A stretch of DNA of 64,000 bases. It comes from a virus. Taxonomy: Duplodnaviria; Caudoviricetes. A program made the position numbers and the translations under genes. The notes under the pieces were generated by a model. It was not told the DNA's origin. It did not search any database and was given only the letters and a program-made list of their open reading frames with translations. The stretch lies in IMG/VR virus record IMGVR_UViG_3300042451_000960; one strand, given 5' to 3'. Below are positions 9,305 to 43,610 of this stretch, in pieces; within the stretch, counting starts at the first letter, position 1, and the number at the start of each line of letters is the position of its first letter.

Positions 9305-9771
9305 TATACCACTCTCATTTCAGTTTGAATACTACTTCTTCTAGTCATAAATGTAGAACATGTGATAGAGAACTTTTCACCATCTCCTGTTTCAACCCTA
9401 CCACCAATTAAAAAATCTTCAGTTACATTATCAATTTCAAAATACGCCTCATTATGAAAAATAATATCACCAACTTCCGGATAGAATCCCTTATCTTTTA
9501 ATGTAAATCTATTAAAACGAAATTCTACATTTTGATTAGCATCAACACCAAATCCTTCGTAGTTTGCTGTTGTATCATCTCTTTGAATAATTGCTGTGCA
9601 CTCTACACCTTGATAATATGTTTTATTTAGGGATTCTCCATAAAGATTTGTCTTGCTATCTTCAATAACAAGTTTATAGAGAACTACCGCAGTTTCAATT
9701 ACCGCATCTACTAACTCTCTAGAAATTCCCTCAAAAAATTTTATATCTCTCGCTAATGCAAACCTTGCCAT
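9304..9771 (-). CDS. Neck protein, gp14-like head closure
   Basis: 155 aa between gp13-like and gp15-like genes; PEVGDIIF...YFEIDNV beta-barrel pattern. Confidence 0.55.
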   Translation of the reverse strand: MARFALARDIKFFEGISRELVDAVIETAVVLYKLVIEDSKTNLYGESLNKTYYQGVECTAIIQRDDTTANYEGFGVDANQNVEFRFNRFTLKDKGFYPEVGDIIFHNEAYFEIDNVTEDFLIGGRVETGDGEKFSITCSTFMTRRSSIQTEMRVV

Positions 9772-11009: not shown

Positions 11010-11405
11010 TTAATTATCCAATTGTGTCCACTGTCCACCATTCCATCCGTAGAAATGAAAATCGGTAGTATTAAAATAAAGTGCTCCAGACGTTGGTGAA
11101 GTTGGTGCAGTTGAGTGATTTGGTAATACTACAATTGAGTTACTACCACTAATATTTAACGAACCTGTTATAGTTTGATTTCCATTAAATTGATTTGAAC
11201 CAGTTGTTGTAAACGAAGAACTATCTATTGAAAACCCAGAAGTACCAGATGTTCCATCTCTACCACTAACTCCCGCTTGTGATATTGTTAATTGTGGTTG
11301 AGAAATTTGGACATTAATATTAGTTATAGCATTTTCTACCGCTACATTAGTCTTTGGGACTTCAACTTGGACAGTTGTTATATCTTTTTTTATTTCTACG
11401 GACAT
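11010..11405 (-). CDS. Short fibre/whisker-like protein
   Basis: GVSGRDGTSGTSG collagen-like stretch; C-terminal GALYFNTT...YGWNGGQW typical of phage fibre tips. Confidence 0.55.
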   Translation of the reverse strand: MSVEIKKDITTVQVEVPKTNVAVENAITNINVQISQPQLTISQAGVSGRDGTSGTSGFSIDSSSFTTTGSNQFNGNQTITGSLNISGSNSIVVLPNHSTAPTSPTSGALYFNTTDFHFYGWNGGQWTQLDN

Positions 11406-24224: not shown

Positions 24225-26573
24225 TTATCTTCCGTACTTAAAGATACCCAATATTTGATTTAATGGTGCAAATGCTCCAGTCAATTTATAGGTATTTCCC
24301 CCATAAACGAAAACAATACCCTCATTTGGAACAATTTTATCAAATCCACCTAAAGAATTTAAGCGGCTTAATTCAATTTTTAATTTATCAATTTGTTGTG
24401 GATTTCCAGAAGCTTTTATTTGCTTAATTGCAGTTCCCAATTCTTTTCTTAATTGTTTGGTTGCATCCGAAGGATTGGCGGTAAGTACAGATTCCATAAA
24501 TGATAATACATCAGCACCAACACCTAAAAAGATTTGTTCAAACTTCATTATGTTTTCTTTCATAATCTTTTGCTGGTCTTGCTTATCAGTTTTATCCGCC
24601 CATGCTTTTATCTTCTGGTCTTGTATTTGATTTATACGCATTGATTTATCACCAAAAGCCCATCTTTTAACCAACCCTATTTTTGAATTTATGTCTAATT
24701 TTTTTGCATTCTTTTCAACATAATTTTGCCACCAAGCCTGATGGTAATCTGCTACTCCAGCTGAATCAGAAAGTTTAAATTCGTTTTGCAATTTATTAAC
24801 CATTGATATATACTTTCCTTGTAATTTAGAAAGTTCTTGAGATTTTGGTAATGATTGTATTGGGGGTCCCTGAATTGTGTATGTATTTTGTACATGCTTA
24901 TTAACTTGCTTAATCATACCAGCTAAGATAGATGCCGCCTGTTGGTTCTCTCCGATTACTTCACCTTCTTTATTATATTCAAAAGTTCCGTGAAATACTA
25001 AAATGTTTTGTCCATATGGTATTACGTTTGAATTCTTTGGATATATTACTTCCAAATTCATAAAACATGCACCATCTTTAAATATCTTCTTACGTTGTGG
25101 TTCAGTTAATCCTGCTATTGCTTTTGAAAGGTCATTCATAGCAAATGTATAAGCATCTGTAAGAGCACCTCTACCAGCAAATTGTTTTGCAACCTGCCCT
25201 ATAGTCATTGCACCTTCACCTTTATTTTTTGTATGAGATTTATTTCTTGCGGCAACCAATCTACCATTTACCCAACTAATTGCCAATGCCTGTCCATCAG
25301 TTTTTTCTCTTGCTAATTCCAAATCACCATTAAGAGCTTTAGTTACAATATTTTTAAGGTCACCAAATGTAAGATTCATCTGAATGTCAAATGGGTGATT
25401 CATATGTCCATATGCTCCACCTTCTAAAAGTAAACCTTCACTTAGTGGGGTTTCAATCTTTGATAATTTACTATAATAATTTGGGTCTTCGTATAAATGG
25501 TCTAATGCTATTTCTTTTGCAACATTTACATCGGTTGTATGCTCTCTTTCTACTGCATATCCTTTTATAAATTCGTTCTTTAAAGTCTGCTGACTAACTT
25601 TATGGTGTTTAGCTATATCCGATAGTGTCATACCTTCGGCTTTTCCACCTGGTATTTTATCTTCTTTTACTTTAGTGTATTCCTCACTACCATCTTTATC
25701 CAATTTAGATTTTAATTTCTTAACATCTTTTGGATTTGGTGCTCCATTAATATATCCACCAGTCAAAGATAATCCAACACCAGCACCACCACCTAGTCCT
25801 TCTTTAATATCTTTCTTAGGAATTCTAAATGTTACGGCTTTCTTACCATTGATTGTTGGCATTCCCCATTCATCTTTTCCGATAGATTTAACAAAAACTT
25901 TTTTGTTTTTAAATTTACCCATTAAGATTTGGTCACCAATCTTAACATTTAATTTAATTTCTTCGTTAATATATTCTTTAAGAGATTTAAGTTTGAGAGT
26001 AATCATTTTGAATATTTGCTCATCAAACTTTGGATATGCTTTCATAAAACCTTTCTTTCTATCCGCTTCACTACCAGCACTTAACCAATAACGAACATCA
26101 GTTCCACTTATAGGATTTGATTGAGCAGGTGCTATATAAACGTACCCCCTATCCAAATATCCAGTATCTACTTTACCTTTATATGGTTTGAAGTATTTAC
26201 CACTTAGACGTGAAGAATCTTTTTCACCAACTGCTGTTATAAATGCAGTAGTATCTGAATCAAATTTATTGAGTATTTCTTGTGGAGCGTATGGGTTTTT
26301 AATACTGACTATTTTGTTTGATGGAATACCAAACATCTTTGTCATTATTACTTTCTTTTCCTTAAACCCGAATGGAGATTTCTTTGAATCGGTTACATCG
26401 GAAGTTCCTACATAAACATTATCCCTTCCAAACTTCTTAACCAAATGGTCATACGTTGCGTAGTGACCCTTATGAAAAGGTTGAAAGCGGCCCGAATAGA
26501 CAACTATTGTTTTGTCTATCTGAGCCGCTTCACCTAATATGCTTTCTATTAAAAATTGTGCTAATCTGTTCAT
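24225..26573 (-). CDS. Multidomain protein: HIGH-family (NMNAT/NadM-like) nucleotidyltransferase + DUF5661-like + ATP-dependent ligase-fold domain
   Basis: SGRFQPFHKGH, SPF..KEK, ISGTDVR; GYAVEREHT....AKEIALDHL.EDPNYY.KL; EKTDG, EGIVF, YKLTG. Confidence 0.7.
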   Translation of the reverse strand: MNRLAQFLIESILGEAAQIDKTIVVYSGRFQPFHKGHYATYDHLVKKFGRDNVYVGTSDVTDSKKSPFGFKEKKVIMTKMFGIPSNKIVSIKNPYAPQEILNKFDSDTTAFITAVGEKDSSRLSGKYFKPYKGKVDTGYLDRGYVYIAPAQSNPISGTDVRYWLSAGSEADRKKGFMKAYPKFDEQIFKMITLKLKSLKEYINEEIKLNVKIGDQILMGKFKNKKVFVKSIGKDEWGMPTINGKKAVTFRIPKKDIKEGLGGGAGVGLSLTGGYINGAPNPKDVKKLKSKLDKDGSEEYTKVKEDKIPGGKAEGMTLSDIAKHHKVSQQTLKNEFIKGYAVEREHTTDVNVAKEIALDHLYEDPNYYSKLSKIETPLSEGLLLEGGAYGHMNHPFDIQMNLTFGDLKNIVTKALNGDLELAREKTDGQALAISWVNGRLVAARNKSHTKNKGEGAMTIGQVAKQFAGRGALTDAYTFAMNDLSKAIAGLTEPQRKKIFKDGACFMNLEVIYPKNSNVIPYGQNILVFHGTFEYNKEGEVIGENQQAASILAGMIKQVNKHVQNTYTIQGPPIQSLPKSQELSKLQGKYISMVNKLQNEFKLSDSAGVADYHQAWWQNYVEKNAKKLDINSKIGLVKRWAFGDKSMRINQIQDQKIKAWADKTDKQDQQKIMKENIMKFEQIFLGVGADVLSFMESVLTANPSDATKQLRKELGTAIKQIKASGNPQQIDKLKIELSRLNSLGGFDKIVPNEGIVFVYGGNTYKLTGAFAPLNQILGIFKYGR

Positions 26574-26613: not shown

Positions 26614-27018
26614 TTAATTTCCATCAATTTTTACTTCACCTTCAGATGGTGCTTGTGGAGCTAATTGTTGTTTTTGCATTTCTGCAATTTGTTTTCTTGA
26701 AAGAGTTCCAGGTTGATATTGGATAGTTCCTTCCATAAGGTTCAAACGTCCTCCAGGATACCTATCATCCAAATCATCCATCATTTTTTTGAATTCATCA
26801 TTTTTTTGTTTGAATTCTTCTTCAATTCTTATAACAGTTTCATCAAGTTTTCTCGATTCTTCCATTAAATCTTTTCTTCTTAAATAAAGATTTCCAAAAT
26901 CAGTTACATAATTACCCAACATAGTGTTAAGGTTTTTAACTGAATTTAAAGTTTCTTCATCAAGTTTTACTGTTTCGATTTCAATTGTTGTTTTTGTAGG
27001 AATGTTATCTAATGACAT
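26614..27018 (-). CDS. Coiled-coil protein, paralog of 30813..31070
   Basis: FGNLYLRRK...LDDRYPGGRLNLMEGTIQY. Confidence 0.7.
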   Translation of the reverse strand: MSLDNIPTKTTIEIETVKLDEETLNSVKNLNTMLGNYVTDFGNLYLRRKDLMEESRKLDETVIRIEEEFKQKNDEFKKMMDDLDDRYPGGRLNLMEGTIQYQPGTLSRKQIAEMQKQQLAPQAPSEGEVKIDGN

Positions 27019-27042
27019 AATTTATGTTTTTTTGTTTGTATA

Positions 27043-27051
27043 TATAAGTAT
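27043..27051 (-). promoter_or_regulatory. Late-promoter-like variant ATACTTATA
   Basis: 25 nt upstream of ATG 27018. Confidence 0.45.
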
Positions 27052-27052
27052 A

Positions 27053-27442
27053 TTACTTTTTATTTTTTAAAATCTTAGATGTACTAAAGCCTGGTATTTT
27101 GTTGAAATATTCAATTTTTGGTACAAATTCTGCGCCTATTATTTGTTCATAACTATAATCGTTTCCAATTACCATAATATCAGGTCCCCATTCTTTTATT
27201 CTTTCGATTAATTCATCATCAGAATCAAAAGAGACCACAGAGTCAACACCATTGATAGCGGATAGAAACTCCATACGGTCAGCCAACGTATTGAACGGCC
27301 TTCCCACTCCTTTTTTTGAACGAACTCTTTCATCCGTATCAATCCCCATTCGTAAGGTGCCCAATGATGCACCATGTAACATAAGTCTGATGTGGCCAAT
27401 GTGCAAAACATCAAAAGTTCCATTTATCCAAATTTTTTTCAT
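27053..27442 (-). CDS. hldC: Heptose-1-phosphate adenylyltransferase (HldC / RfaE domain II-like)
   Basis: GTFDVLHIGH; KG.GRP.N.L.DRM..L.A...VD.VVSF; PDIMVIGNDY; GFSTSKIL. TagD-type cytidylyltransferase not fully excluded. Confidence 0.75.
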   Translation of the reverse strand: MKKIWINGTFDVLHIGHIRLMLHGASLGTLRMGIDTDERVRSKKGVGRPFNTLADRMEFLSAINGVDSVVSFDSDDELIERIKEWGPDIMVIGNDYSYEQIIGAEFVPKIEYFNKIPGFSTSKILKNKK

Positions 27443-28590
27443 TATAAGAATTTCTCTAATTCTTTAATTACCATATCAGATGTAATTAATTTAGTACATT
27501 CAAATTGTCTTTCAGTACCTTTGTGGTCTGGGCACCAATTCCAATCACCAGCATCTAAACGTATTCTATTGAAACATCCTTCACATTTCCCTTCCGGAGA
27601 ACCTATTCTAACACAATCTTTCATTTCTGCCCATTTATAAGAAAAACCACTAATTAAGACTGTAGGTACATCTAATGCCCAACTTAACCAACTTAACCCA
27701 CTACCAATTCCAATAAATGCTTTTGATTTTAATAATTCATCCATAACTAATTCAATTGGACCATCGGGGTGTTTGATAACTCCATTTGGAATTTTATTTC
27801 CCATATAATCATCACCTTCTTTGGATATAATTCTAACAACATACCCTCTTTCGTTTAACCAATCAACAACTTCTTGCCAACCTGTTGGATTATTCCAAAA
27901 CTTAGATTGTGCAGTACCAAACATACCAATACAAACTTGTTTTAAATTATAATCTTTTGTTATGTATCTTTCTTTTATTTTAGGTTTAATTTCTTCATAT
28001 TCTAATCCTAATATATCAGAACACATTTTTTGTAAAGTTGAACTTTTTGGGTCATTTGGATTTTTAAAAATGTTATGTGAATTATCTTCATTATAAAATA
28101 ACCCAACACAATACATAGCGTATAAATTTTCAACATTTGTACCCGGCTGTACGAATTCAATATGTGGATACCCATTTTCAAACATATCATTCATAAAAGT
28201 TGAAACAACAACTTTACATTTATGTTTTTTTCTGAATTCCTCTACATAAGCAAACCAAGCTAAAGAATCCCCAAGAGCTTTTGAATCTAATGCTATATAA
28301 ACTCTTTTTTCTTCTGCATTAAAATAATGTGTATGGAAATGATTATCGTTTTCATATATTTCTATACGCCAATCAATAAAATATTCTATACTACATCTAG
28401 ACCACATATTGTTTTCTATTTCAGAAGAAAATACAATTTTATCAGAATTATTATCAATAAAATTAATTTTATATTTTGCTTTTTTTGGTCCTTTTATTTC
28501 AACAAAAGGTCCTTTAACAAAATGAATTAATACTTTGTTTTTTATTTCAACAATATTATTGTGATTCTTTTTTAAATTATCGTAAATCAT
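27442..28590 (-). CDS. Aah/TibC (BAHT)-family protein O-heptosyltransferase
   Basis: ALGDSLAWF.Y.EEF.KKH.C; FIGIGSGLSWLSWA...P.VLISGFS; CEGCFN...WCPDHKGTERQFECTKLI (four-Cys iron site pattern). Start re-called at ATG 28590 (TAATG overlap). Confidence 0.85.
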   Translation of the reverse strand: MIYDNLKKNHNNIVEIKNKVLIHFVKGPFVEIKGPKKAKYKINFIDNNSDKIVFSSEIENNMWSRCSIEYFIDWRIEIYENDNHFHTHYFNAEEKRVYIALDSKALGDSLAWFAYVEEFRKKHKCKVVVSTFMNDMFENGYPHIEFVQPGTNVENLYAMYCVGLFYNEDNSHNIFKNPNDPKSSTLQKMCSDILGLEYEEIKPKIKERYITKDYNLKQVCIGMFGTAQSKFWNNPTGWQEVVDWLNERGYVVRIISKEGDDYMGNKIPNGVIKHPDGPIELVMDELLKSKAFIGIGSGLSWLSWALDVPTVLISGFSYKWAEMKDCVRIGSPEGKCEGCFNRIRLDAGDWNWCPDHKGTERQFECTKLITSDMVIKELEKFL

Positions 28591-30770
28591 TAATCCCAAG
28601 TTTTTATAGTTTCATCCAATAAAGAATATCCTTCTGCTTGTTTGGAGTACATTTTATTAGTAGTATATCTAGGTTTTGGATGGTGATAAAATATATGATT
28701 AAACCAAAGGTCGCCCACATCCCATTCACAATCTTTTATTCTATCCATCCACCAGCTTTTGTTTCTATTTGGAATTAAATAAGCGTGTGCAAGGTCTTGA
28801 TTGTGTCCTGTTTTTGTAAACAAATCATCAATTCTATATTTTTCTCGTGATGGGTTATCTGCCAATCCTATAAAATATACATCATCTCTTTCTGAAATAA
28901 AACAGGCTTTATGAACTATGTTTACAAATTCTTCTAACCCTGTGTAAATAAATGCATCGGCTTCAAATATTAAAGTATAATCGTAATTCGTATCATCTAT
29001 TGTTTCTATAGCGTTTCTATGTGCTAAATAACAACCATAATGTCTACCAGTTATCCAACCCAAACCAGCACCAGGATATAATTCACCAGGTTTATTATCT
29101 TTACTTAAATGCTCAGGTCTTCTACAATGTTCTGCCGGCGGTAACCCTTCATAAACCTTATTAACAATTGGTTGATAATCAATTCCATATTGACGTAATT
29201 GTTTTAAAGATTGAATAGATACTCTTTCACGCATATCATCCGGTCTTGTCAACATATGTTTTATTTGAATACGTGGTTTTTTACGAACAAAAGATAAAAA
29301 ATCTTTTTGAATCTGTCCATAAAAAAAGTGATTAGCTGCATCTGTTACTCCACTAAAAACTCCAAAATCATCTCCACTAATAATTCCACCAGGTTTTACT
29401 TTATGATACCATCTATCTAACTCACCTAATACAAAATCTCTACTATGCCCACCATCAATCATTATATAATCAATAGAATTATTTTGAAATAGTTTAGAAG
29501 CATTTTCTGATGTATCTTTTATAGTATTAAACGCTTCATAATTATTTGAAATAACTGTGTTATCAACGAATTCATAAAATATATCTCCATTGAAAGACCC
29601 TACAATATCTATGTGTAATTCTTCATCTCCAGTTCCTTTAAATGTATCTATTGTTGTAAATGAAATATTCTTTTTAGAATCTCTAATTTTTTTTGCTAAA
29701 TAATTTGTAGATTTTCCAAACCAAGAACCAACCTCAACAAATGTAGAATTAAAAGGTGCAGTTTCTACCATTCTATCATATAAATTTTCATATGAAAACC
29801 AACCAGGTATTTCGTAAAATTCAGGTTTTAATTTTTGAAGTAATAATTGTTTTGTTTTTTTAGTATCATCATCAATATATGTTACTAAATTATTGTTATC
29901 ATATGTATCCAAAAAAGTATGCAATCTTCTAAATAAGCATGGGAGCTTGTAAGAAAGAGCTTCCTTTACCGATAATGGATTTAACTCTAATATTGATGAA
30001 AAATAAAACAAATCAGATGCTGCATAAAATGTATCAACATCATTTCGCTCTCCCCATATAACACAATTATCAGGTTTATGTTTCATTAGTGGCAACCAGT
30101 AATTTTCAAAGTTCATAGCTTGGTTTCCAACAAAATGAAATTTAATTTTATATTTTTCCAATTGCCTTGCTACTGAAAATATTTCTTTTTGATTTTTGCC
30201 CGGTGAAAATAATCCAACATTTAAAATATGCTTCCAAGTTGGGTCAAATCCTAATTTTTTTTGCGCTTCTTCTTTATCAAAATTATATTCTTCAATGGGA
30301 TATTCCCAAAGTTGAGTTTCAACTCCTAAATTAGCATCATCAAATTTTTGTTTACTCCACTCAGATACCAAAACATATCTATCTGGATGATGTGTAATAT
30401 CTAATGGATTTGTAAATGAACCATGTGTTGTTGCTACGATAAAATATTTTCTTTTGTTATCAAATATTTTATCTAATATTTCATTTGATAAATCAAATTG
30501 TGGGATTTCTTGAAAATGAATTATATCAGGTTTGTAGTCTTTAATTATATCAAGTATTTTAGATTTATCCTCACCTAAAGTATGTACAATAGCTAAAGAT
30601 TTAATTCTATTTTTTTGAACTACAAACGCATCACCACCACTATTGTTTATTTCAACAACTTCAATATTAAAATCATTTAAAAAATGCTTTACTTGCTTAT
30701 ATGTATATTGTGGTTGTCCGCCTGTTGAAAGGTGTGGACATACATAAAGTAACTTTTTTCTATTTTTCAT
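28590..30770 (-). CDS. Tri-domain GT4 glycosyltransferase - class I SAM methyltransferase - GT25-like glycosyltransferase
   Basis: NVGLFSPGKNQ and ELNPLSVKE (E-x7-E); FVEVGSWFGKST, IMIDGGH, VKPGGIISGDD; HYGCYLAH...LIFEADA. Confidence 0.8.
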   Translation of the reverse strand: MKNRKKLLYVCPHLSTGGQPQYTYKQVKHFLNDFNIEVVEINNSGGDAFVVQKNRIKSLAIVHTLGEDKSKILDIIKDYKPDIIHFQEIPQFDLSNEILDKIFDNKRKYFIVATTHGSFTNPLDITHHPDRYVLVSEWSKQKFDDANLGVETQLWEYPIEEYNFDKEEAQKKLGFDPTWKHILNVGLFSPGKNQKEIFSVARQLEKYKIKFHFVGNQAMNFENYWLPLMKHKPDNCVIWGERNDVDTFYAASDLFYFSSILELNPLSVKEALSYKLPCLFRRLHTFLDTYDNNNLVTYIDDDTKKTKQLLLQKLKPEFYEIPGWFSYENLYDRMVETAPFNSTFVEVGSWFGKSTNYLAKKIRDSKKNISFTTIDTFKGTGDEELHIDIVGSFNGDIFYEFVDNTVISNNYEAFNTIKDTSENASKLFQNNSIDYIMIDGGHSRDFVLGELDRWYHKVKPGGIISGDDFGVFSGVTDAANHFFYGQIQKDFLSFVRKKPRIQIKHMLTRPDDMRERVSIQSLKQLRQYGIDYQPIVNKVYEGLPPAEHCRRPEHLSKDNKPGELYPGAGLGWITGRHYGCYLAHRNAIETIDDTNYDYTLIFEADAFIYTGLEEFVNIVHKACFISERDDVYFIGLADNPSREKYRIDDLFTKTGHNQDLAHAYLIPNRNKSWWMDRIKDCEWDVGDLWFNHIFYHHPKPRYTTNKMYSKQAEGYSLLDETIKTWD

Positions 30771-30780
30771 AACTTATTTA

Positions 30781-30812
30781 CAAATATACGATTTTTTTTT
30801 GGAATTTCCAAA
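30781..30812 (-). promoter_or_regulatory. Bacteroidota housekeeping-sigma promoter (TTTG-N20-TATATTTG) with palindrome over the -33 box
   Basis: TTTG at 30812-30809, TATATTTG at 30788-30781, 20-nt spacer; TTTGGAA-N-TTCCAAA inverted repeat 30798-30812. Confidence 0.75.
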
Positions 30813-31070
30813 TTATTTTTGAAACGTTACACTACCTTCATTCAGGTCTATTTCTCCATTTGGATATTTTTGATTCAAATCATTTAATAAAGTATCCAAT
30901 TCAACGGAAACTTGCTTATATTCAGTTTCCGCTCCCAATATGATTTTTTTAAGCTCTGATAATTCTAAATACAACTCCCCTATATTATATATAAGTTCGG
31001 TTTTTTTGGTTGAAAGGTTTTTTAAGTTAATTAGTTGATATTCTTCTAATTTTTCAGTTTGTAACTCCAT
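30813..31070 (-). CDS. Coiled-coil protein, paralog of 26614..27018 (possible fibre chaperone)
   Basis: IGELYLELSELK...LNQKYPNGEIDLNEGSVTF; directly after tail fibre gene. Confidence 0.65.
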   Translation of the reverse strand: MELQTEKLEEYQLINLKNLSTKKTELIYNIGELYLELSELKKIILGAETEYKQVSVELDTLLNDLNQKYPNGEIDLNEGSVTFQK

Positions 31071-31098
31071 ATGTTTTTATTTTAAATATATTTTAAAT

Positions 31099-34000
31099 TT
31101 ATAAAGAACCACTTATAAATGCTTCTAAACTAGAAACTTTTTGTGAAAGTTCTTGTATTGCTTTTACCATAGGTGATATAAATTCATTGTATGTAACAGA
31201 CCATCCAGCATTTTGTTGTTCTTCATCATACCATTGTTGATTGTAAAGAGTACCATCAGAACCTGTTATAGAACCACTTGCTATAATTTCTTCAATAGGT
31301 CTTTTATATTCTCTTTCTAATGATTTGATAAAAGAAGAACCCGTATTCAATCCTTTAAAATCATCAGATGTTTTTCCAAGCGATTCTAAAGCAGTTAATA
31401 CCTCTTGTGCAATAAATCCATATCTCGGTCTTTTTTTAGTACTTGATATGAAATTATATTTTACCGGTCTTAATTGTTTAATAAAATCCAAACCTAAATC
31501 GGAAGTGTAAATATTTTCTTTTAATTTTAAATCAGATAAATTATTAAAATTATCGGCATATATTTCATCCCAAAAAACTCCAGTACCCGAGTTACTACCC
31601 ATATCTTGAGTTCCATTATGTGGTCCACCAGCAGTTCCCCAGCGTGTATCGGCGGGGTGTACATCATCTATAAAATGCGCTTGATATATACTTCCGTATT
31701 TTGGTCTATACGCTAAATCCAATCTTCCATAGCCCGGACTTGCATCATTTCCAGAAATGAATATATTTCCTGCTAAATAAAGGCTTCCACGTGAATCTAT
31801 TGCATAGTTCGAAAATGCACCACCAGCGGCACCAAATGCCCAAAATTTAGATTGAGCTCCTTTTGCTTCAAAAATTATATCACTCGAACCAACTGATGTA
31901 GAAAGACGTGGAATTTGAACAAACGTTGATGTATCATTTGCTATCTGAATACCTCCAGTTGTAACTTCTACTATGTTTGTTGGTATTATAATAGTAAAAC
32001 TATTAGAATTATAACCAATTCCATTATCAGTTACAGCAGTATTAATACCAGAAGTATGTCCATAAAATACTTCAGGTAACTCTGTACCAAAACTATCTAC
32101 AGATACTGAACTTCCAGCTCTTGCGGATATTTGAATTGAATATCTAAATTTGTAATTTCCAGCAGAAGGGAAAGTAATAAATCTATCAGTAATTGCTGTA
32201 AATCCGCCGGTTGTGTATCCGGTATGAACGCCCGGTGTTGTATAATTACTATAAATCCAACTTGAACCATTCCACTCCCAATTATCAACACTGGTTGCGC
32301 TATAAGATGATACATTTTGTATCCAAACTCTAGCTATTTGACCCGTAGATTGGTTGACACCTTCTAAATACACATCAGCGCCAACAAACTTAGGACTTGC
32401 ATATCCATTTTGACTTTCCCCAGGATACGTTCCAGGATTATTTGGATTATTTGCGTTTGCATAAATGGTTTGTGATGATAAATTATCAATTTGTAAAACA
32501 CTAAATGTATAAAGATTAGTTAGTGCATAAGTACCTGCAGCAGGTATTGAATAATTTGTTGCAGTTTCAAAATTAGAAACATCTGCATATGAATACGGCC
32601 CATATTGCGTAGCAAATGTTCCAAATGCCGATACATCAGCTGGTGTTGTCCAATCCGGATATGGTGAACCATTTCCATTTGGTATATCACTTACACTTAC
32701 GTTTGAACCACCAACATTTGTCAAATAGTTTACAGGAGATATGTTTAATTTTTTTTCACCCGCTAAATAAAATCCAAGTTCAGGTACAGTAGGGTTTAAA
32801 ATAAGTTTTGAACCGGAATCTCGTAAGTTTCCACCCAATGCTTGTGATTCAATAATCCAATTTCCAATTCTACCATCGGTAGCTGAAATAGAACCTGTAA
32901 TAGAGAAATTATTTTCTTCAAATTTAATTTGGCTACCAATTGGATTACCAAATCTTACTCTACCACTACTATCCATATAAAATCCAGAACCACTATTAAA
33001 CGTTGCTGCTGTAGCAGAACGTATAATTCCACTACCCGTTCCACTTGTCTCAACACCCATAACTAAAGCTCTCGTAATAGTTGCGTCTTGAGCAAGTAAA
33101 ATATCAGTTGCTACTGAACTAAATTGTGCACCAAAAGATTCCCAATATGTTGTATTAGTTGGAAGATTACCCGTTGTATTTTGTTTTGTTAAATAATATG
33201 CGTTATTATATTTTACAATATCTCTACGAACACCTGCTGAAAAAATGTATGCAGTTGCTGCATTATATTCACCCCTATAAACCACACCAGGTCCAGTATC
33301 ACCAGCTGCTCCCGCTGCTCCTTGTTTGGATTTTGAAAAAGATTGAACTCTACTTAAAGAAAACAAATCTCCATTTATTTTCTTACCGGATAATGTATAA
33401 TTAATACTTGCCAAATCAGCTGTCATATTGGAATGATTACCAACTACTGCATAGTTACCACCATCGGTTACAGATCCGGCTGTAATATTGGTAACAGATG
33501 AGGATACTGCCCATTTACCCGGTGAAGTACCAACCCCATCATAATCCAATTGAGTTGCACCTTCATAAATGTATATATCAGTACCACTTCCAGCATAAGA
33601 TGAAACAGTTCCATCATTTGCTGCTGGTAAAGTATGAGATTCATTTGTTACTATTACGGTTAATGCATCACTTCCTTCTTTAACCCTTGCTATTGAAACA
33701 GTATCAGTTATTGAATCCGCTGTTGCACTAATTTCAACCAAAGTATTTGTACCAAAAGAACCCGTTCTTAAATAAACAATATTTCCGCTTGTTGTTGTAC
33801 TTCCACCCGTTGCAGAATCAAATAATGTTACGGATGGTGTTGTAGTCCAATTCGTTGTTGCGGAAATATTTTGTTTGTTTGAAGTTAATTCAATATAATT
33901 TGGAGAAAGCGAACCACTCTTTGTTTCAACAAATACTTGAGCAGATGCTTCTAATCTAAGTAACTTAGCTGCTATTGGTGCAATAGTCCAAGGACCGGAA

Positions 34001-37000
34001 CCAGGATAACCTGTTCCTACATTTGTATTATTTGTAGATGTGTGGTTAGAGTTTGCTGTCCATGTATTTCCACCATATGTAACAATATCGTTTGTGTAGT
34101 AAACAGTTGCATCAGCCCAAGCTCCCATTAAACGTCCTTCGTTTACGCCAGGGGATGATTGTTTTATTGAACCAACAATAGTCAAAGTACCACCATCCCA
34201 AAATAATCCCTTACCACTACCACCATATTCTTTAATTGAAAATCTTCCTGTTGTACCATTGACACCATCTTCGTACATTCCTAAAAATATACCAGGTCTA
34301 TTAAATCCAATAATACCAGTTCCAGATGTACCAGATGCGCCGGAAGTTGATGGGTTATATGTTGTACCAGATGTGCCCGCAGTACCTACAGTACCATGCT
34401 GACCAATTGAAATATATGGGTCAGGTCTACCACCTGCTATTACTATATTAGCAAATTTAGAAGTATTGTTATAAGTACCTACGTTAATTGAATTCTTAAC
34501 ATAAGATTCTTCAAATATAGCAATTTTAGCTGCTACAAAGAAATCTTGCTCACCCAAATACTGCCAATAATCGTTACTATTACCAACAGCAGGTGGGTAT
34601 TGATGTCCAATTAATACATATCCACCCGGTGGTGTTGCTCCAACATAATAATCAGATGTTGTTGGGTTTACATAAGTTGTAGGCCCACTTCCACTTAGTG
34701 CTGCAAAATAGTGAGTTGTATTATTACTACCAGATGGGTCAGGCCAAATAATTGCATCTCTACGATAATTTACTGTTTCATACGAACCAATATAATCTTC
34801 ATATTCACTATATTGACCTCTCATTACAATACCAGGTCCAGTTTCACCTTCAAATTGAACAGAGAATGATTGGGTTTTAAATGCTACTCCCTTTCCATTT
34901 TCAAAATCAATTCTATAAACAACAGACCCAATTGGATTTGAATCAGCGGTTGTCCAAGATACCAAATCACCAATTACAGCTCTACCAGCAACAATTGGTA
35001 AAACACTTTGAGATACCAACCCACCAGCTAATCCTAAATAAGCTGATTTTGAATGTATAGTTACTTGATATTCTCCCAACGAACCAATTTCATTTGAAAA
35101 TATATCTAAAGTTTGTGGACCAAATGGGTTAGCATGAGTTAATTGTGTTATTCCTTTTGTTGCATTTATAGTTGTTCCAGTTCCACCCAATTCAACTTCA
35201 CCAGAAACTCTATAAATAATAGAAACGTTATCATTAGTTAAAGTTGCGTTATATGATGGAACACCTTGTTGTAAACCTGTAAGTGTTAATGATGCTTGTG
35301 CTGTAATTGGTTGTGTTGAACTTATGTTACCATCTCTAACTTGTACTACCCATAGTGCGGTTTCGCCTGGTGCAACAGAGTCACCAGAAGCTATTGTTGC
35401 TATGTTTGATGCTTGTATTGGTGTATATGCTACATTATCTTTTAAAAATTGATAATAAGCTGAACCGGTAAAGTTGGTAACTGTTGCCGTTAATTCTATA
35501 TCTCCCGCTGGTGATACTACAACACCATCACTATCAAAACTTACAAAATTTGAAGTTGCTGATAATGTTACTCCTCTTGAATCCGCGCCATCTAATAGTT
35601 TAGTAAAGTTTTGAACTTTATTTATTACCGATGAAGTATATTGATGACCAGGTCCTAGTGAATATGGATATGCAATTATATTATATGTTACACTACCTGT
35701 TCTTGGTCCTTGATTAAAATTGTGAAATCTTATTAATGCCCTATCACCATTAAATGATGCTGTTAATGATGCCGTAAATACATTAGTTTGTTCAAAATTA
35801 TCAACATAGAATGTACCAGGTTGATAAGACCAAGAATTATAAAGTAAATATTTATTTCCTTCTTTAATTCGTAATGTAGTATTAGATGATGCATAATTTG
35901 ATACAACTCCGTTTTCATCAGCATTTAAAACAACGGATTCGGGTGTTAATGATACTTCTAATTGTGGTGTACCATCTAATATTTTTGTAAATTGTTGAAC
36001 TACACTTCCCGTATAAATTGATGATGTATAAAATGGTTGTATTTCAAGATTATATGTAACACTACCACTTAAATTGTTCATACCACTAGCTGCGCCTATA
36101 AACAAAGAACCTGTGTAATTTGCATTAAAGCCCGGTGGTATTGGGTTTATAATTTTACCAGGTATAATATTAGAACCAGTTATACTGCCTGAAACAATAA
36201 AGAAAGTTCCTTCACCTTTACTTGCTGTAAAATTAAGATACCTAGAGCCTTGTTTTAATCTTATTTGTGTTACTGATGATGAATAACTATTTACAAAACC
36301 TTCTGCTGTTGCATTAAGAGATACCAATGCAGGAGTTACTTCAAAAATAATTGTTTCATCTCCCGGCTTACCTTCTGGTATAATAGTGAATGTTTTATCT
36401 AAACTTATAGATGCAGAAGTCCAAGGTTCAGTATATGTAAATGTAATTGTTAAATTTTTACTTTGCTTATTAGATTGCCCTATATATGAATTTAGTGGTA
36501 ATGAATCAATTACATTTTTATTTTCATCTCTTGCTATTACGGAAATAGTTTTATCTGCACTTTGTGTTGTATAATAAAACCAATATTCAGGAACATAATC
36601 TTTATTAATTGACATCGAAGGGAATACCCTAAACGATGCTGTTATTGCGTTGGTTGTTCCTCTTTCAAAAAATGAAGCCGTAGCAAATGCAAATGATGGT
36701 CTAAAATTTATTTCATTTCTTGGATTTATAGCAAATGTATCAGCATTAAATACTATACTTGGTGTATCCAAACCATCTTGCAAATCTTCTAAAATAATAG
36801 ATGCTAAAACCGAACCAGATACTGCATATGCCGGTGAAGCTGCTGCAGATGATGATGGCATTAAATAAATAATTCTCCTAAAATCTATTGAATCTCTATC
36901 AAATACTGCATTATAGTTAATTTCTTTAGAACCCAACGAACCAGTTATTATTCCTCTGATATATTTGCTTGATGATGCCAATGATAAAGGAATAAATTTT

Positions 37001-39304: not shown

Positions 39305-39481
39305 ATGAAAAAATACGCAATGATTCAAATTGATGCCGAAATTCATCAAGTACTGAAGGATTTTTGTAAAGAGAAAGGTTACAAAATTAATGGATTGGTG
39401 GAATCTCTTATAAAAGAAAAGGTGGAATCTGTTAAAAAGACCCCACCTAAAAATATATTACCTGTTAATTCTAAAAGTTAA
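39305..39481 (+). CDS. Ribbon-helix-helix (CopG/Arc/MetJ-like) DNA-binding protein, 58 aa
   Basis: Manual translation MKKYAMIQIDAEIHQVLKDFCKEKGYKINGLVESLIKEKVESVKKTPPKNILPVNSKS; alternating beta strand, helix-G-turn-helix; fills an otherwise empty intergenic gap; below the ORF-track cutoff. Confidence 0.75.
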   Translation: MKKYAMIQIDAEIHQVLKDFCKEKGYKINGLVESLIKEKVESVKKTPPKNILPVNSKS

Positions 39482-42400
39482 TCTTAGAGAACCCATTATC
39501 TTTCTTAATTTCAATTAGTCCATCAACAATATCTCTCATTTGTTCTAAGTGAGAAATCATCCAAATAAAATCGAATTGGGTTTTCAGATATTGCATCATC
39601 ATAAAGAGTGAAGATAGGTTATCCGCATCCAAAGTTCCAAACCCTTCATCAATAACTAAGAAGTTAGGTCTAGGAAGGCCGCATATGTTAATTAGAGCCA
39701 CTCTAATCGCTAATCCCGATATGAACTTCTCCATACCACTACACATCTCCAGAGCCCACTCCTGGTCTTCGTAAACGATTTTAGCGTTAATGTTCTTACC
39801 ATCAGTATCCATTGAAAGTGAGAAATCAACAACCTGTGCTAATATGTTATTCACTTCGGATTCAATTACAGGCATTGCTTTGGAAATAAGTTCATATGGT
39901 ACACCATCTTTCTTAACAGCATCTAAATAGTAAGTGTAAAGAGTATTCTTATTTTCCAATTGTTTTACTTCATCCATCTTAGCTTTAGTGGAGTCTATAA
40001 ATGATTGTATAGAACCAATTGCGCCAGTTTTTTGAAGAATCTGTCTATTAATATCTGAAAGTTCCTTATCTATGTTTTTCTTACGAATTTCCAATCCTTT
40101 AATTTCTTCATTCAATTCATTGTTCTTACGAATTGTTGCTTCGTTTGCATGGTATCGTTCTATATCAGTTTTAACTCCATCTAATTGATTTTCTAAAAGT
40201 TGATGAGCGGTTTTCAATCCACTCAATTCGGCTTCTCCTTTTTGTTTAAGGATTTCGCCCTTTTGATATTTGTTTCGTAGTTCAACTAATTTTTCCCAAA
40301 CATATTCTACTTCAGAAAATGGTTCAGTTGCTTTGATTAAAGCATGATGTGCTATATTCAAAGTTTCCAATTGTCTTTCTTGTGTTTTAACAATTTCTTT
40401 TGTTGCGATAGCATCTTTAACGAATACATTATTCATGCAAAACTTACAATTTGGGTCATACTCATGTTGTTCCAAATGTTTAAGTTTTTCCAAATTAGAT
40501 TCGTATTGTCCTTCCAACTTATCTATTTGTTGTTGAACATCTGCTAATTTACCTTTTGCCAAATCCCATTCTTTCTTAGCTTCATTAATAGGTAAACCAT
40601 TTACTGTATCGTATTGTGATATTGATTGCGATGCTTCGGTAAGAACTTCAAAATAACTTTCAATATTATTCTTTTTAGTTTCTATAAGTGATTCATTATT
40701 CTCAATATCACTATCAATCTTCTTTTTAGATTTTTCCAATTGTATAAGGTCTAACTTAGAATCAATTGGTGTTAGGGATTCCTTTAAATCAGAAATTGCG
40801 TTTTGGTTTTCTTCTTTAAGTTTTTCTAATTGTTTATATTCAGATTGTAAACTGTCTAATTCTTTTTGAGTTTCGGTTAAGTCGGTTTCCTTTTGGGCTA
40901 ATTCAGTCGTAAAATCTGTCCTTTTGAAATTTCTGATTAGTGCCGCCACTTCCTTAATGTCTTCACTAGCAGTTGCGTACAGCTTATCAAATATATCCAA
41001 GCCCATAAACTGCGCAAGAAGGTCTTTCCTTTCCGATTGTGATTTATCAATGAATAGTGCATTGTTACCTTGTAGTGATAGAGCAGTCATTACGAAATCC
41101 TCATATCTTCCAACGTATTGTTCTATAACGGAGTTAGTATCCCTTCTCTCTGTCCCATTAAGGGATTCCTTTTCCCCACCATTGGTTCTCCAGAATTGAA
41201 CATCTACTTTAACATTTCTTCCTTTATTAATTGTTCGGGCTTCTCTCCTTATGTGATAATCTATACCTTCAACCTGAAAATGTAGTTGGCAATGGAAGTC
41301 TGATTTCCTATTGTTCATAATATTAGCTGCCTTAAATGCTCTGCTACATTTGTCAAACAAGCAAAATGAGATTGCATCAAATAGAGATGATTTTCCGCTT
41401 GCATTGGGTGCGAATAATCCCATCAGTCCATTTACTTTATCAAAATTGATTACATTATCCTCACCATAACTGAACATATTAGAGAATTCAAATCTTACCG
41501 GCTTCCATTGTACGTTTCTAGTAAGTTCATCCATCTCTATTCTATTATTGATGTCCTTATTTAGCGATTGTATTCCTGCTATATCATCCGCAGTTGCGAA
41601 TGGCATCATTCTTTGTATATAATCCGTAATTAAGGAGTTTTGATAAGTCACATCCGTAATATCTTCCAACTCCAATTGATTATCCCTATCACCAGTCTTT
41701 TTCTTTGCCAACGAATCAGTCCTAATTGTTGTAAAATCTTCTACACCATACTTCACCTTAATTTCGGTGATTGCTTTTTTAGTATCTACCGCATCAGTAT
41801 CAGAAAATCTTACCCTAAGCCTAGGATGAGTAGGTAAATCAGTAACGTCAGGAACAACTCCTGCGATAATATCCATGGTGTAATAACCATAATCGTTTTG
41901 TATATCAACTTCTTCATATGTTAATGTATCTAAATCCCAAACTAAGAAACCATGCTTGTCCAAAGTTTCTCCAAAGTTTTGCTGCACCAACGAACCTGCG
42001 TAAACACACCTACAACCTCTTGGCGATTTGAGTTCTTGTCTTTTGTGGATGTCACCTAAAAGGGCTAAATCGTAACCATCAAACATATCAGTTGTGAAAT
42101 GTCGAGATGATACTACATAACCTATATCAGTTTCAGAATGGTCCACAGGTCCGTGGAATAGTGCAATTTTTGTTTCAGCCGTTAAACTGTATGATTGTGG
42201 CCAATTATCTTTATTATCAAAAATACTAAACACTGCGAATTCACATTGTCTATATTTCCAAATTTGTGTATCTTTTAAATACCAAAAGTTTTCTAAATTC
42301 AAAGCCTCTACGATTGGAGTTAATACATCCAAACGGTCAGAGTTATTCATATTACAATCGTGATTACCAGCAATAAGAATTGTTGGACAATGTTTTGTAC

Positions 42401-42617
42401 ATTCGGTAAATAGCCAACTAATCTCTTTCACCAATTCAGGTGACATTTCCAATTTAGCATGTGCAATATCACCTGCTAAATAAATTAGTGAGTTTTCCGT
42501 TCCTCTTTGACGGATTTCCTCAAACATTTTTTCAAATACTTGTCTGAACTCTTTATGCCTCTTTACATTACGAATATGAATATCCGCAATATGATAAATC
42601 CTTTTTAATTTACTCAT
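39471..42617 (-). CDS. Single-chain Mre11-Rad50 (gp47-gp46 / SbcD-SbcC) fusion
   Basis: IADIH, AGD, GNHD, GDIH phosphoesterase motifs; Walker A APNASGKSS, coiled coil with CKFC hook, CSGME signature, Walker B LVIDEGFG, H-loop MISH. Confidence 0.92.
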   Translation of the reverse strand: MSKLKRIYHIADIHIRNVKRHKEFRQVFEKMFEEIRQRGTENSLIYLAGDIAHAKLEMSPELVKEISWLFTECTKHCPTILIAGNHDCNMNNSDRLDVLTPIVEALNLENFWYLKDTQIWKYRQCEFAVFSIFDNKDNWPQSYSLTAETKIALFHGPVDHSETDIGYVVSSRHFTTDMFDGYDLALLGDIHKRQELKSPRGCRCVYAGSLVQQNFGETLDKHGFLVWDLDTLTYEEVDIQNDYGYYTMDIIAGVVPDVTDLPTHPRLRVRFSDTDAVDTKKAITEIKVKYGVEDFTTIRTDSLAKKKTGDRDNQLELEDITDVTYQNSLITDYIQRMMPFATADDIAGIQSLNKDINNRIEMDELTRNVQWKPVRFEFSNMFSYGEDNVINFDKVNGLMGLFAPNASGKSSLFDAISFCLFDKCSRAFKAANIMNNRKSDFHCQLHFQVEGIDYHIRREARTINKGRNVKVDVQFWRTNGGEKESLNGTERRDTNSVIEQYVGRYEDFVMTALSLQGNNALFIDKSQSERKDLLAQFMGLDIFDKLYATASEDIKEVAALIRNFKRTDFTTELAQKETDLTETQKELDSLQSEYKQLEKLKEENQNAISDLKESLTPIDSKLDLIQLEKSKKKIDSDIENNESLIETKKNNIESYFEVLTEASQSISQYDTVNGLPINEAKKEWDLAKGKLADVQQQIDKLEGQYESNLEKLKHLEQHEYDPNCKFCMNNVFVKDAIATKEIVKTQERQLETLNIAHHALIKATEPFSEVEYVWEKLVELRNKYQKGEILKQKGEAELSGLKTAHQLLENQLDGVKTDIERYHANEATIRKNNELNEEIKGLEIRKKNIDKELSDINRQILQKTGAIGSIQSFIDSTKAKMDEVKQLENKNTLYTYYLDAVKKDGVPYELISKAMPVIESEVNNILAQVVDFSLSMDTDGKNINAKIVYEDQEWALEMCSGMEKFISGLAIRVALINICGLPRPNFLVIDEGFGTLDADNLSSLFMMMQYLKTQFDFIWMISHLEQMRDIVDGLIEIKKDNGFSKINF

Positions 42618-43549
42618 ATATTATTTAACTTTGCCATCACCAAATCATCCCATGTAGTTTCTTTGGCAGATTTTAATATTTCGTTTACTTTTTGAAATCC
42701 CATTTCACCAGCATCCTTATCGGTTGGGATAATATTTCTTACTTTGATTCCATTTTTTTGAAACCATTCAGTATGTTTTGTAGAATCATCTACGGCATCA
42801 GAATCTAACATAATCGTTACATCCTTAACACCCTTTTCCATAATTTTATTTTTGAGTTTGCTGAGTAAGAATTTACCCAATAGGGGAATTACATTTCTTT
42901 TGACTGAGAAAGAATCAAATACTCCCTCAACTAATGTGATTGGCTCATCCCAATTAATCATATTATCAAATACAATCACATCTCTACTAATTGGTGGGTT
43001 CTTATACTTCATTTTCTCATCTTCATAGAAAGAACGAGCTACAAAGTAATTAAGGTCACCATTATCATCGTAAGAAGGTATAATAACCCTTCCACCATAT
43101 AAACCATCTTCACAATATCCGATGTTATACTTTACGATGTCAGCTTGAGTGATACCTCTTTTATTTAAATAGTGTAAAGCTTGATTATAAACTGGATTTA
43201 TTCCTTTTGGTTTGAAGTATAATTGTTTGAATTCTTTTGGTAGTTGTAACTTAGCTACATATTCTTCTTTGGAATCATATTCTGGTTCATCACCATATAC
43301 ATCCTTTACAACCGATATATCCCTAAGGTCTACATTCAGTTTACGAAGGAGTGATGATATACTTCTACCTTTAGAATCACATACCCAACAATGCCATCTT
43401 TGTGTATCTAAATTTATTTGAAGTTTCTTTTTGTGGTGATTACAAAAAGGACAATGATGCGCCTGTTCATTTCCCTTTAAGGATGAACCTACTCCTAATG
43501 CGGAGTCTAATATATTGATTATTTTTAATTTGTTCTTACCCGATAGCAT
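42614..43549 (-). CDS. DNA primase (DnaG/gp61-like)
   Basis: CPFC...HCWVC zinc finger; GRVIIP; Toprim LVEGVFD and MLDSDA. Confidence 0.9.
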   Translation of the reverse strand: MLSGKNKLKIINILDSALGVGSSLKGNEQAHHCPFCNHHKKKLQINLDTQRWHCWVCDSKGRSISSLLRKLNVDLRDISVVKDVYGDEPEYDSKEEYVAKLQLPKEFKQLYFKPKGINPVYNQALHYLNKRGITQADIVKYNIGYCEDGLYGGRVIIPSYDDNGDLNYFVARSFYEDEKMKYKNPPISRDVIVFDNMINWDEPITLVEGVFDSFSVKRNVIPLLGKFLLSKLKNKIMEKGVKDVTIMLDSDAVDDSTKHTEWFQKNGIKVRNIIPTDKDAGEMGFQKVNEILKSAKETTWDDLVMAKLNNI

Positions 43550-43578: not shown

Positions 43579-43610
43579 CAAATATACAACATTTTTGGGA
43601 TATATCCAAA
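43579..43610 (-). promoter_or_regulatory. Bacteroidota housekeeping-sigma promoter (TTTG-N20-TATATTTG) with palindrome over the -33 box
   Basis: TTTG at 43610-43607, TATATTTG at 43586-43579, 20-nt spacer; GGATATATCC palindrome 43598-43607. Confidence 0.75.

Follow-up and report, generated by a model that had tools for sequence, protein, structure and literature searches.

A coupled three-gene phage cassette around a TibC/Aah-family transferase as a candidate system for O-glycosylation of virion fibres

The 64,000-nt stretch analysed in this study (hereafter the window) belongs to a large freshwater phage, the tailed-phage record IMGVR_UViG_3300042451_000960, and is held within an IMG/VR fragment of 136 kb with a completeness estimate of 67%. 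It carries three coupled genes, encoding an HldC-like adenylyltransferase of 129 amino acids (aa), a TibC/Aah-type (BAHT family) transferase of 382 aa, and a 726-aa protein with GT4, methyltransferase and GT25-like domains (Table 1). This content, proposed in an earlier note on the DNA, was borne out by profile, structure and model matches. With a probability somewhat better than even, the cassette is considered to O-glycosylate the phage's own fibres in the cytoplasm, by a BAHT-type priming step, most likely with heptose, and subsequent extension and methylation by the 726-aa protein. In this scheme, a conserved host-type promoter would drive the three genes, and the TibC/Aah-family enzyme would place the first sugar on Ser, perhaps also Thr, of the fibre proteins before or during assembly. 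The first sugar would most likely be D-glycero-D-manno-heptose donated by ADP-heptose, and the 726-aa protein would lengthen the glycan through its GT4 and GT25-like domains and then O-methylate it. The HldC-like enzyme would boost the last step of ADP-heptose synthesis, with the earlier steps (GmhA, kinase, GmhB) supplied by the host, and the most likely acceptors would be the Gly-Ser-Ser collagen-like stretches of giant fibres, possibly also the S74 fibre next to the cassette. Gene content, family membership by sequence, conservation of catalytic residues, synteny, domain fusions and a statistical association with collagen-like genes were observed directly, whereas we infer which sugar is used, which protein accepts it, how the steps follow one another and what role they serve, which could be shielding, solubility or adhesion of the fibres. 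A narrower version is tentative and more open to doubt, namely that the iron-finger BAHT enzyme primes serines of giant proline-free (Gly-Ser-Ser)n fibres with heptose, on which the GT4, GT25-like and methyltransferase modules build a methylated oligosaccharide, giving the virion a mucin-like "glyco-collagen" coat.

The 382-aa protein matched the TIGR04414 profile (hepto_Aah_TibC) with 291.7 bits (291.3 in the genome search), above the curated equivalog cut-off of 200, and aligned with the TibC structure 4rap over 338 residues (E 5e-53, about 35% identity), which places it in the BAHT family. In TibC, Asp-110 is the catalytic base, Thr-226 and Lys-230 contact the beta-phosphate, Trp-305 binds the heptose O4, and Cys-339, 342, 358 and 370 form the iron finger (PMC4358343). 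Further hallmarks of the BAHT family are a ring-shaped dodecamer, ADP-heptose as donor and, as acceptor, an autotransporter passenger whose gene is nearby. The base, phosphate and O4 positions are matched by D108, T226, K230 and W301 of the 382-aa protein, and the four Cys, conserved by alignment as C336, C339, C353 and C365, form a predicted iron site. All these catalytic, donor-contact and iron-finger Cys residues were invariant in the 80 close relatives, a set of IMG/VR loci with transferase identities of 70-77%. Among 142 aligned domains drawn from the 150 nearest cluster representatives, D108 and W301 were likewise invariant, K230 was Lys in 141, position 226 was Thr in 129 and Ser in 13, and the four Cys were kept in 138.

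The 129-aa protein matched CTP_transf_like and contained the HxGH nucleotidyltransferase motif. Its best NCBIfam was rfaE/HldE domain II (TIGR02199), with 90.4 bits vs. 51.5 bits for glycerol-3-phosphate cytidylyltransferase, it matched PHROG 7878 at 1e-32, and its closest solved structure was the B. pseudomallei HldC (PDB 5x9q). It resembles HldC/HldE domain II also in being paired with an HldA-like kinase in relatives, and differs in its length of only 129 aa and in standing alone, since profile searches detected no gmhA, HldA-type kinase, GmhB or HldD in the 136-kb record; the earlier note, which had seen none of these in the window, thus holds for the whole record.

Behind the transferase, three states were found among the 80 relatives: 29 loci have HldC together with a PfkB HldA-like kinase of about 248 aa, 18 share the window's state of HldC alone, and 33 carry neither donor gene, so that HldC occurs in 47 of the 80. 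The kinase had HldE domain I as its best family (94 bits vs. 36-39 for ribose kinases), and the transferase catalytic residues were intact in all three states. Since a transferase 100% identical to that of the window is accompanied on another contig by HldC and kinase, the gain and loss of the donor genes appear to be recent. An identical copy lies on a 278-kb contig. The changes concentrate in a hot spot between the transferase and a 134-aa open reading frame (ORF), in the 27018-27053 region, which differs even among phages with identical transferases.

Beyond this clade, the family appears to travel with heptose genes in several settings. One transferase-bearing megaphage carried a true gmhA and another an HldE kinase domain. 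A scan of genome contigs returned only two Lachnospiraceae metagenome-assembled genomes (MAGs) and one Roseiarcus MAG. In a Lachnospiraceae MAG (JAFSTN010000008.1, 454-4760) the BAHT homologue adjoins GmhB, a bifunctional HldE and HldD, two of the three scoring above curated cut-offs. This set would be a case of protein heptosylation in an organism of Gram-positive lineage without lipopolysaccharide.

Several observations, however, weigh against ADP-heptose as the donor. Arg-286 of TibC contacts adenine N1, and R286A is inactive (PMC4358343). V282 stands at this position in the window protein and Val in 80 of 80 relatives, in a loop where the alignment may be imprecise; because the adenine-reading Arg is replaced by Val, the nucleotide specificity may differ from that of TibC. 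Across the 142 representative domains the position was occupied by R (38), V (34), T (24), L (17) or I (15), and the residue did not track the presence of HldC or kinase, being Val in all 80 relatives. In addition, the HldC-like protein fell below the TIGR02199 curated cut-off (181.5 bits), and both donor genes were missing from the 33 relatives mentioned above. Neither gmhA nor GmhB was found in a clade member with a complete genome of 274 kb, and heptose genes were absent altogether from a complete 271-kb phage whose transferase is 51% identical. More generally, phage members of the transferase family are known from their genes alone. The 274-kb clade member does have HldC and kinase in its cassette and one further HldC-like nucleotidyltransferase gene, and the cultured Microcystis phage Mel-JY01 had no gmhA, GmhB or other heptose genes that were searched for. 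At the position that sets D,D-heptose selectivity, where TibC has Pro-300 and the less selective Aah a Ser (PMC4358343), the window protein has G296.

These points would be accommodated by a BAHT-fold protein glycosyltransferase whose donor is a different sugar nucleotide from ADP-heptose, with HldC and kinase serving another purpose or another sugar. This alternative also draws on the kinase, which like HldC scored below its curated cut-off. It is nevertheless unlikely, because the residues that bind the heptose O4 and the phosphate are invariant, the best families of the HldC-like enzyme and the kinase are the two halves of HldE, the bacterial homologue has a complete ADP-L,D-heptose set as its neighbours, and gmhA or an HldE kinase domain occurs in transferase-bearing megaphages. 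The heptose proposal of the earlier note thus stood in part, strengthened by the kinase in relatives and by the bacterial GmhB-HldE-HldD neighbours and weakened by the lost Arg-286 and the frequently missing donor genes. With heptose as the sugar, ADP-heptose or its precursors must come from the host in the window's phage, since the complete 274-kb relative is without GmhA and GmhB. Donor genes are lacking in a third of the relatives and in complete related genomes, and the sugar therefore depends on the host and is probable, not proven.

The 726-aa protein combines three domains (Table 1). The GT4 domain was supported, besides the tabulated profile, by Glyco_trans_1_4 (33.6 bits) and PHROG 2170. 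For the C-terminal domain the Pfam GT25 match (PF01755) was weak, with 16.8 bits below a cut-off of 24, and the AlphaFold model (predicted local distance difference test 82) adopted a GT-A fold. The best Foldseek matches of this model were COLGALT1, Mimivirus R655 and GT25 enzymes of the LgtB/LgtE type (COLGALT1-type chains reached E 7.5e-9 and GT25 entries of Swiss-Prot 2e-9, at TM 0.55-0.63), and the E and D of its E-A-D motif, of the acidic metal-binding type, were invariant in 32 sequences.

Fusions of the transferase to such domains recur throughout the family. An exhaustive search of the protein library (E up to 0.001) gave 1,522 clusters at 50% identity, whose phage origin was checked for a sample of contexts only, and at least 584 transferase loci were counted in IMG/VR. 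Among the 150 nearest cluster representatives, 129 were longer than 450 aa. The 52 representatives scanned contained GT4 (29), FkbM (13) and Methyltransf_24 (6) domains, others having FtsJ, CmcI or TylF-type methyltransferases. In Mel-JY01, a single 1226-aa protein combines GT4 with the transferase domain, a middle region lying between them, and in distant contexts a GT4 gene directly precedes the transferase in tail or fibre regions. The coupled gene pair of the window is the split form of this recurrent fusion. So frequent a fusion of the transferase with GT4 and sugar O-methyltransferase domains supports priming of the glycan followed by its extension and methylation, and the extend-and-methylate idea of the earlier note gains ground.

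The search for the acceptor of this glycan turned up collagen-like proteins. The same 136-kb record encodes two giants of 4,539 and 4,716 aa outside the window, at distances of 2.7 kb and 18.4 kb ahead of its start, with Pfam Collagen E-values of 1e-139 and 1e-68. Their Gly-Ser-Ser and Gly-Thr-Ser triplets are proline-free and number in the hundreds, with about 1,275 and 588 residues, respectively, in Gly-Ser/Thr-Ser/Thr triplets, and the first protein is 25% Ser. A third consecutive giant gene, of 3058 aa, is represented by the window ORF at 3-7490, which continues past the window start. To quantify the association, the transferases of 78 loci were clustered at 80% identity, of which 35 clusters were at most 60% identical to the window enzyme. 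A collagen-like gene, defined by a Gly-(Ser/Thr)-(Ser/Thr) repeat of at least 18 residues within 10 kb of the transferase, occurred in 27 of these 35 distant lineages, often directly upstream of the GT4 gene. No such repeat was found in 118 control stretches of IMG/VR sampled with an arbitrary 14-mer (1.01 Mb; Fisher p ~3e-23). Conversely, when 120 stretches were selected for the repeat, 7 carried the transferase, vs. 0 of 118 controls (p 0.014). Pfam Collagen matches were found in all six of the long transferase-positive records, and immuto, a Flavobacterium phage without the transferase, had no such Gly-Ser/Thr repeat.

Three points temper this association. The 80% clusters are not fully independent, and the controls had roughly half the length of the test loci; part of the signal may arise because both gene types live in fibre modules; and within the clade of the window some 30-60 kb separate the cassette from the collagen-like giants, which do not adjoin it. 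Because of the 27 of 35 lineages and the two giants in the same genome, collagen-like fibres are still favoured as acceptors over the adjacent fibre alone.

The adjacent fibre is the 2704-aa protein, which its C-terminal Peptidase_S74 domain, an intramolecular chaperone, marks as a tail fibre or spike. The earlier note placed the cassette directly downstream of it; the fibre gene does lie upstream, with an 85-aa ORF in between. That this S74 fibre is the only acceptor and the collagen-like giants stay unmodified is rather improbable. Its gene is upstream in every clade relative whose flank reaches that far, the protein has 20% Ser+Thr and a short Gly-X-Y run (34360-34404), and bacterial BAHT genes usually adjoin their own substrate gene (PMC4358343). 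The Ser/Thr richness, however, is usual for fibres and not decisive, and most loci outside the clade have no homologue of the S74 fibre beside the cassette, where the recurrent neighbour is instead a collagen-like repeat protein; in Mel-JY01, no giant fibre lies upstream of the transferase fusion gene. The adjacent giant fibre, which the earlier note had implied as acceptor, is therefore not the best candidate, its adjacency being limited to this clade. A further Gly-X-Y run, of the short GTSGTSG type, was noticed in a 131-aa protein among the head/neck genes (11010-11405, minus strand; 27.5% Ser+Thr), a candidate for an additional small acceptor or for a decoration protein.

All window genes were called on the minus strand, and TAATG stop/start overlaps, which couple the three genes translationally, were read at both junctions, between the 726-aa gene and the transferase and between the transferase and the HldC-like gene, as the earlier note had stated; an alternative TTG start upstream would extend the transferase to 385 aa (27442-28599). 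The gene order of the 80 relatives was fibre, 85-aa ORF, 726-aa gene, transferase, 134-aa ORF, NadR-like 782-aa gene, 227-aa ORF and terminase. Profile and structure searches gave no family or fold lead for the 85-aa and 134-aa ORFs. The host-type promoter that had been proposed was confirmed as a promoter-like site of Bacteroidota type with the motif TTTG-N20-TATATTTG; it precedes the 726-aa gene and is kept at the same position in 62 of 66 relatives within variable intergenic sequence. Across the window the motif was found 9 times vs. 4.1 expected, with no clear enrichment. A second intergenic match lies at 43579-43610 on the minus strand, about 30 bases upstream of the gene 42614-43549.

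The closest relatives of the large terminase were those of the Flavobacterium phage immuto (57%) and the Microcystis phage Mel-JY01 (54%). A Bacteroidota host is probable, since the terminase relatives and the promoter type agree. A search for the host through a host-derived TonB-type receptor returned phage copies only. In a freshwater metatranscriptome from one study, at most 5% of the sampled words were present.

A TATAAAT-type, T4-late-like element is located at 31071-31110 (minus strand) before the 85-aa ORF, which, compared with the host-type promoter before the cassette, suggests different timing. This difference from the signal of the neighbouring structural ORF would also suit a cassette that acts on the host, heptosylating proteins at its surface or glycans of its envelope, perhaps as a means of excluding superinfecting phages or of remodelling the cell surface during infection. 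Host O-antigen is known to be altered by glycosyltransferases of temperate phages. Such a host target is very improbable here, because the cassette or its homologues lay in a phage tail, fibre or structural region in every lineage context inspected, the association with phage collagen-like genes is strong, no export signal or membrane anchor and no lysogeny genes nearby were found, and BAHT enzymes modify their protein substrates in the cytoplasm (PMC4358343). DNA glycosylation was set aside, as the family acts on proteins and the cassette is in the fibre/head region, not in the replication region.

With modification of the phage's own virion proteins, as inferred in the earlier note, thus retained as the preferred reading, the cassette can be compared with known systems. 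It shares with TibC/Aah (TIGR04414; PDB 4RAP/4RB4; PMC4358343) the family and the conserved catalytic, donor and iron-finger residues, and its gene has a heptose-activating gene as neighbour and large repetitive surface proteins close by. The differences are that the enzyme is phage-encoded and without an autotransporter, that the adenine-reading Arg is replaced by Val and the stereoselectivity position by Gly (Pro in TibC, Ser in Aah), and that the gene is coupled with GT4, methyltransferase and GT25-like domains (fused with them in relatives), an arrangement that implies an extended glycan and not single heptoses. In line with the earlier note, no autotransporter beta-domain (PF03797) was found in the 136-kb record, the neighbours being phage fibre genes. 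The likely acceptors would also differ, as collagen-like Gly-Ser-Ser repeats and not beta-helix strand-loop-strand motifs.

Gly-X-Y proteins with O-linked glycans are known elsewhere, as Bacillus anthracis BclA and animal or Mimivirus collagen, the latter glycosylated by GT25-type enzymes. The acceptors are Thr in BclA and hydroxylysine in collagen, not poly-Ser, and no BAHT enzyme is involved. The closest structural matches of the third domain in the 726-aa protein are collagen galactosyltransferase and a Mimivirus GT25-like protein, a resemblance at the fold level only (13-17% identity).

In mycobacteriophages, phage glycosyltransferases were shown by experiment to glycosylate structural proteins of the same phage (Freeman et al. 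2023, PMC10527164, as cited in PMC12619734). The window system, known from genes alone, would be similar in having phage-encoded glycosyltransferases act on the phage's own structural proteins, while the mycobacteriophage system, as described there, uses other enzyme families and hosts, and its acceptors are the C-terminal tails of capsid and tail-tube proteins. The "moraphage" paper (PMC12619734) treats virion glycosylation in general terms only, and no link from it to the window's clade was found. Full-text literature searches returned no paper linking phages to the BAHT family or to heptosylated or collagen-like fibres, and experimental virion glycosylation was, as far as found, reported for mycobacteriophages only, with unrelated enzymes.

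In phages, a well-understood bacterial virulence enzyme family turns out to possess a large branch of mostly multidomain members, which is tied to the collagen-like fibres of abundant freshwater and marine phages. If the proposed glycosylation is true, it would be virion glycosylation of a new class, with an acceptor type new to the BAHT family, whose specificity would then reach beyond beta-helical autotransporters. It would also explain how the poly-Gly-Ser-Ser giant proteins of jumbo phages appear in the particle, with a bearing on the stability of phages, on how they recognize hosts and on their escape from immunity or grazers. Mel-JY01 offers a testable case, because this cultured phage carries the fused form. 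In its deposited sequence (PP395634.1), plus-strand Gly-Ser/Thr triplet frames run at 68-2167 and 9446-9629 over annotated minus-strand hypothetical proteins, so that the annotation probably misses collagen-like genes flanking the GT4-BAHT fusion gene.

Table 1. Features of the cassette and its surroundings. Coordinates are window positions except where the 136-kb record is named.
Feature	Coordinates	Strand	Basis or remark
HldC-like adenylyltransferase gene, 129 aa	27053-27442	-	Profile and structure-relative matches
TibC/Aah-family (BAHT) GT-B transferase; predicted protein Ser O-heptosyltransferase	27442-28590	-	382 aa from ATG at 28590
726-aa gene: GT4 / S-adenosylmethionine (SAM)-methyltransferase / GT25-like	28590-30770	-	
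GT-A, GT25-like domain, ~residues 501-711	28638-29270	-	Fold match
SAM-dependent methyltransferase domain, residues 345-469	29364-29738	-	Methyltransf_24, 58.8 bits (cut-off 26.3)
GT4 (GT-B) domain, ~residues 1-330	29781-30770	-	Pfam Glycos_transf_1, 48.7 bits (gathering 26.4)
Bacteroidota-type promoter-like site TTTG-N20-TATATTTG	30781-30812	-	In front of 726-aa gene
85-aa ORF between fibre and cassette	30813-31070	-	Weakly conserved in most relatives
Tail fibre or spike, 2704 aa	31099-39213	-	C-terminal Peptidase_S74 domain
Collagen-like giant, 4,539 aa	136-kb record 74294-87913, outside window		Pfam Collagen
Collagen-like giant, 4,716 aa	136-kb record 90017-104167, outside window		Pfam Collagen

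Two other large proteins encoded on the minus strand of the window were noted. The 782-aa protein (24225-26573) has an N-terminal nucleotidyltransferase domain, with weak NMN (nicotinamide mononucleotide) adenylyltransferase/NadR-like matches, and DUF5661. It adjoins the terminase in 80 of 80 relatives, and its homologues in Mel-JY01 and immuto are annotated as cytidylyltransferase-like and NadR; it probably belongs to NAD metabolism, outside the sugar cassette. The 1048-aa protein (39471-42617) matched phage families that are SbcD/Mre11-like at the N-terminus and SbcC/Rad50-like at the C-terminus, and looks like a fused nuclease-ATPase.

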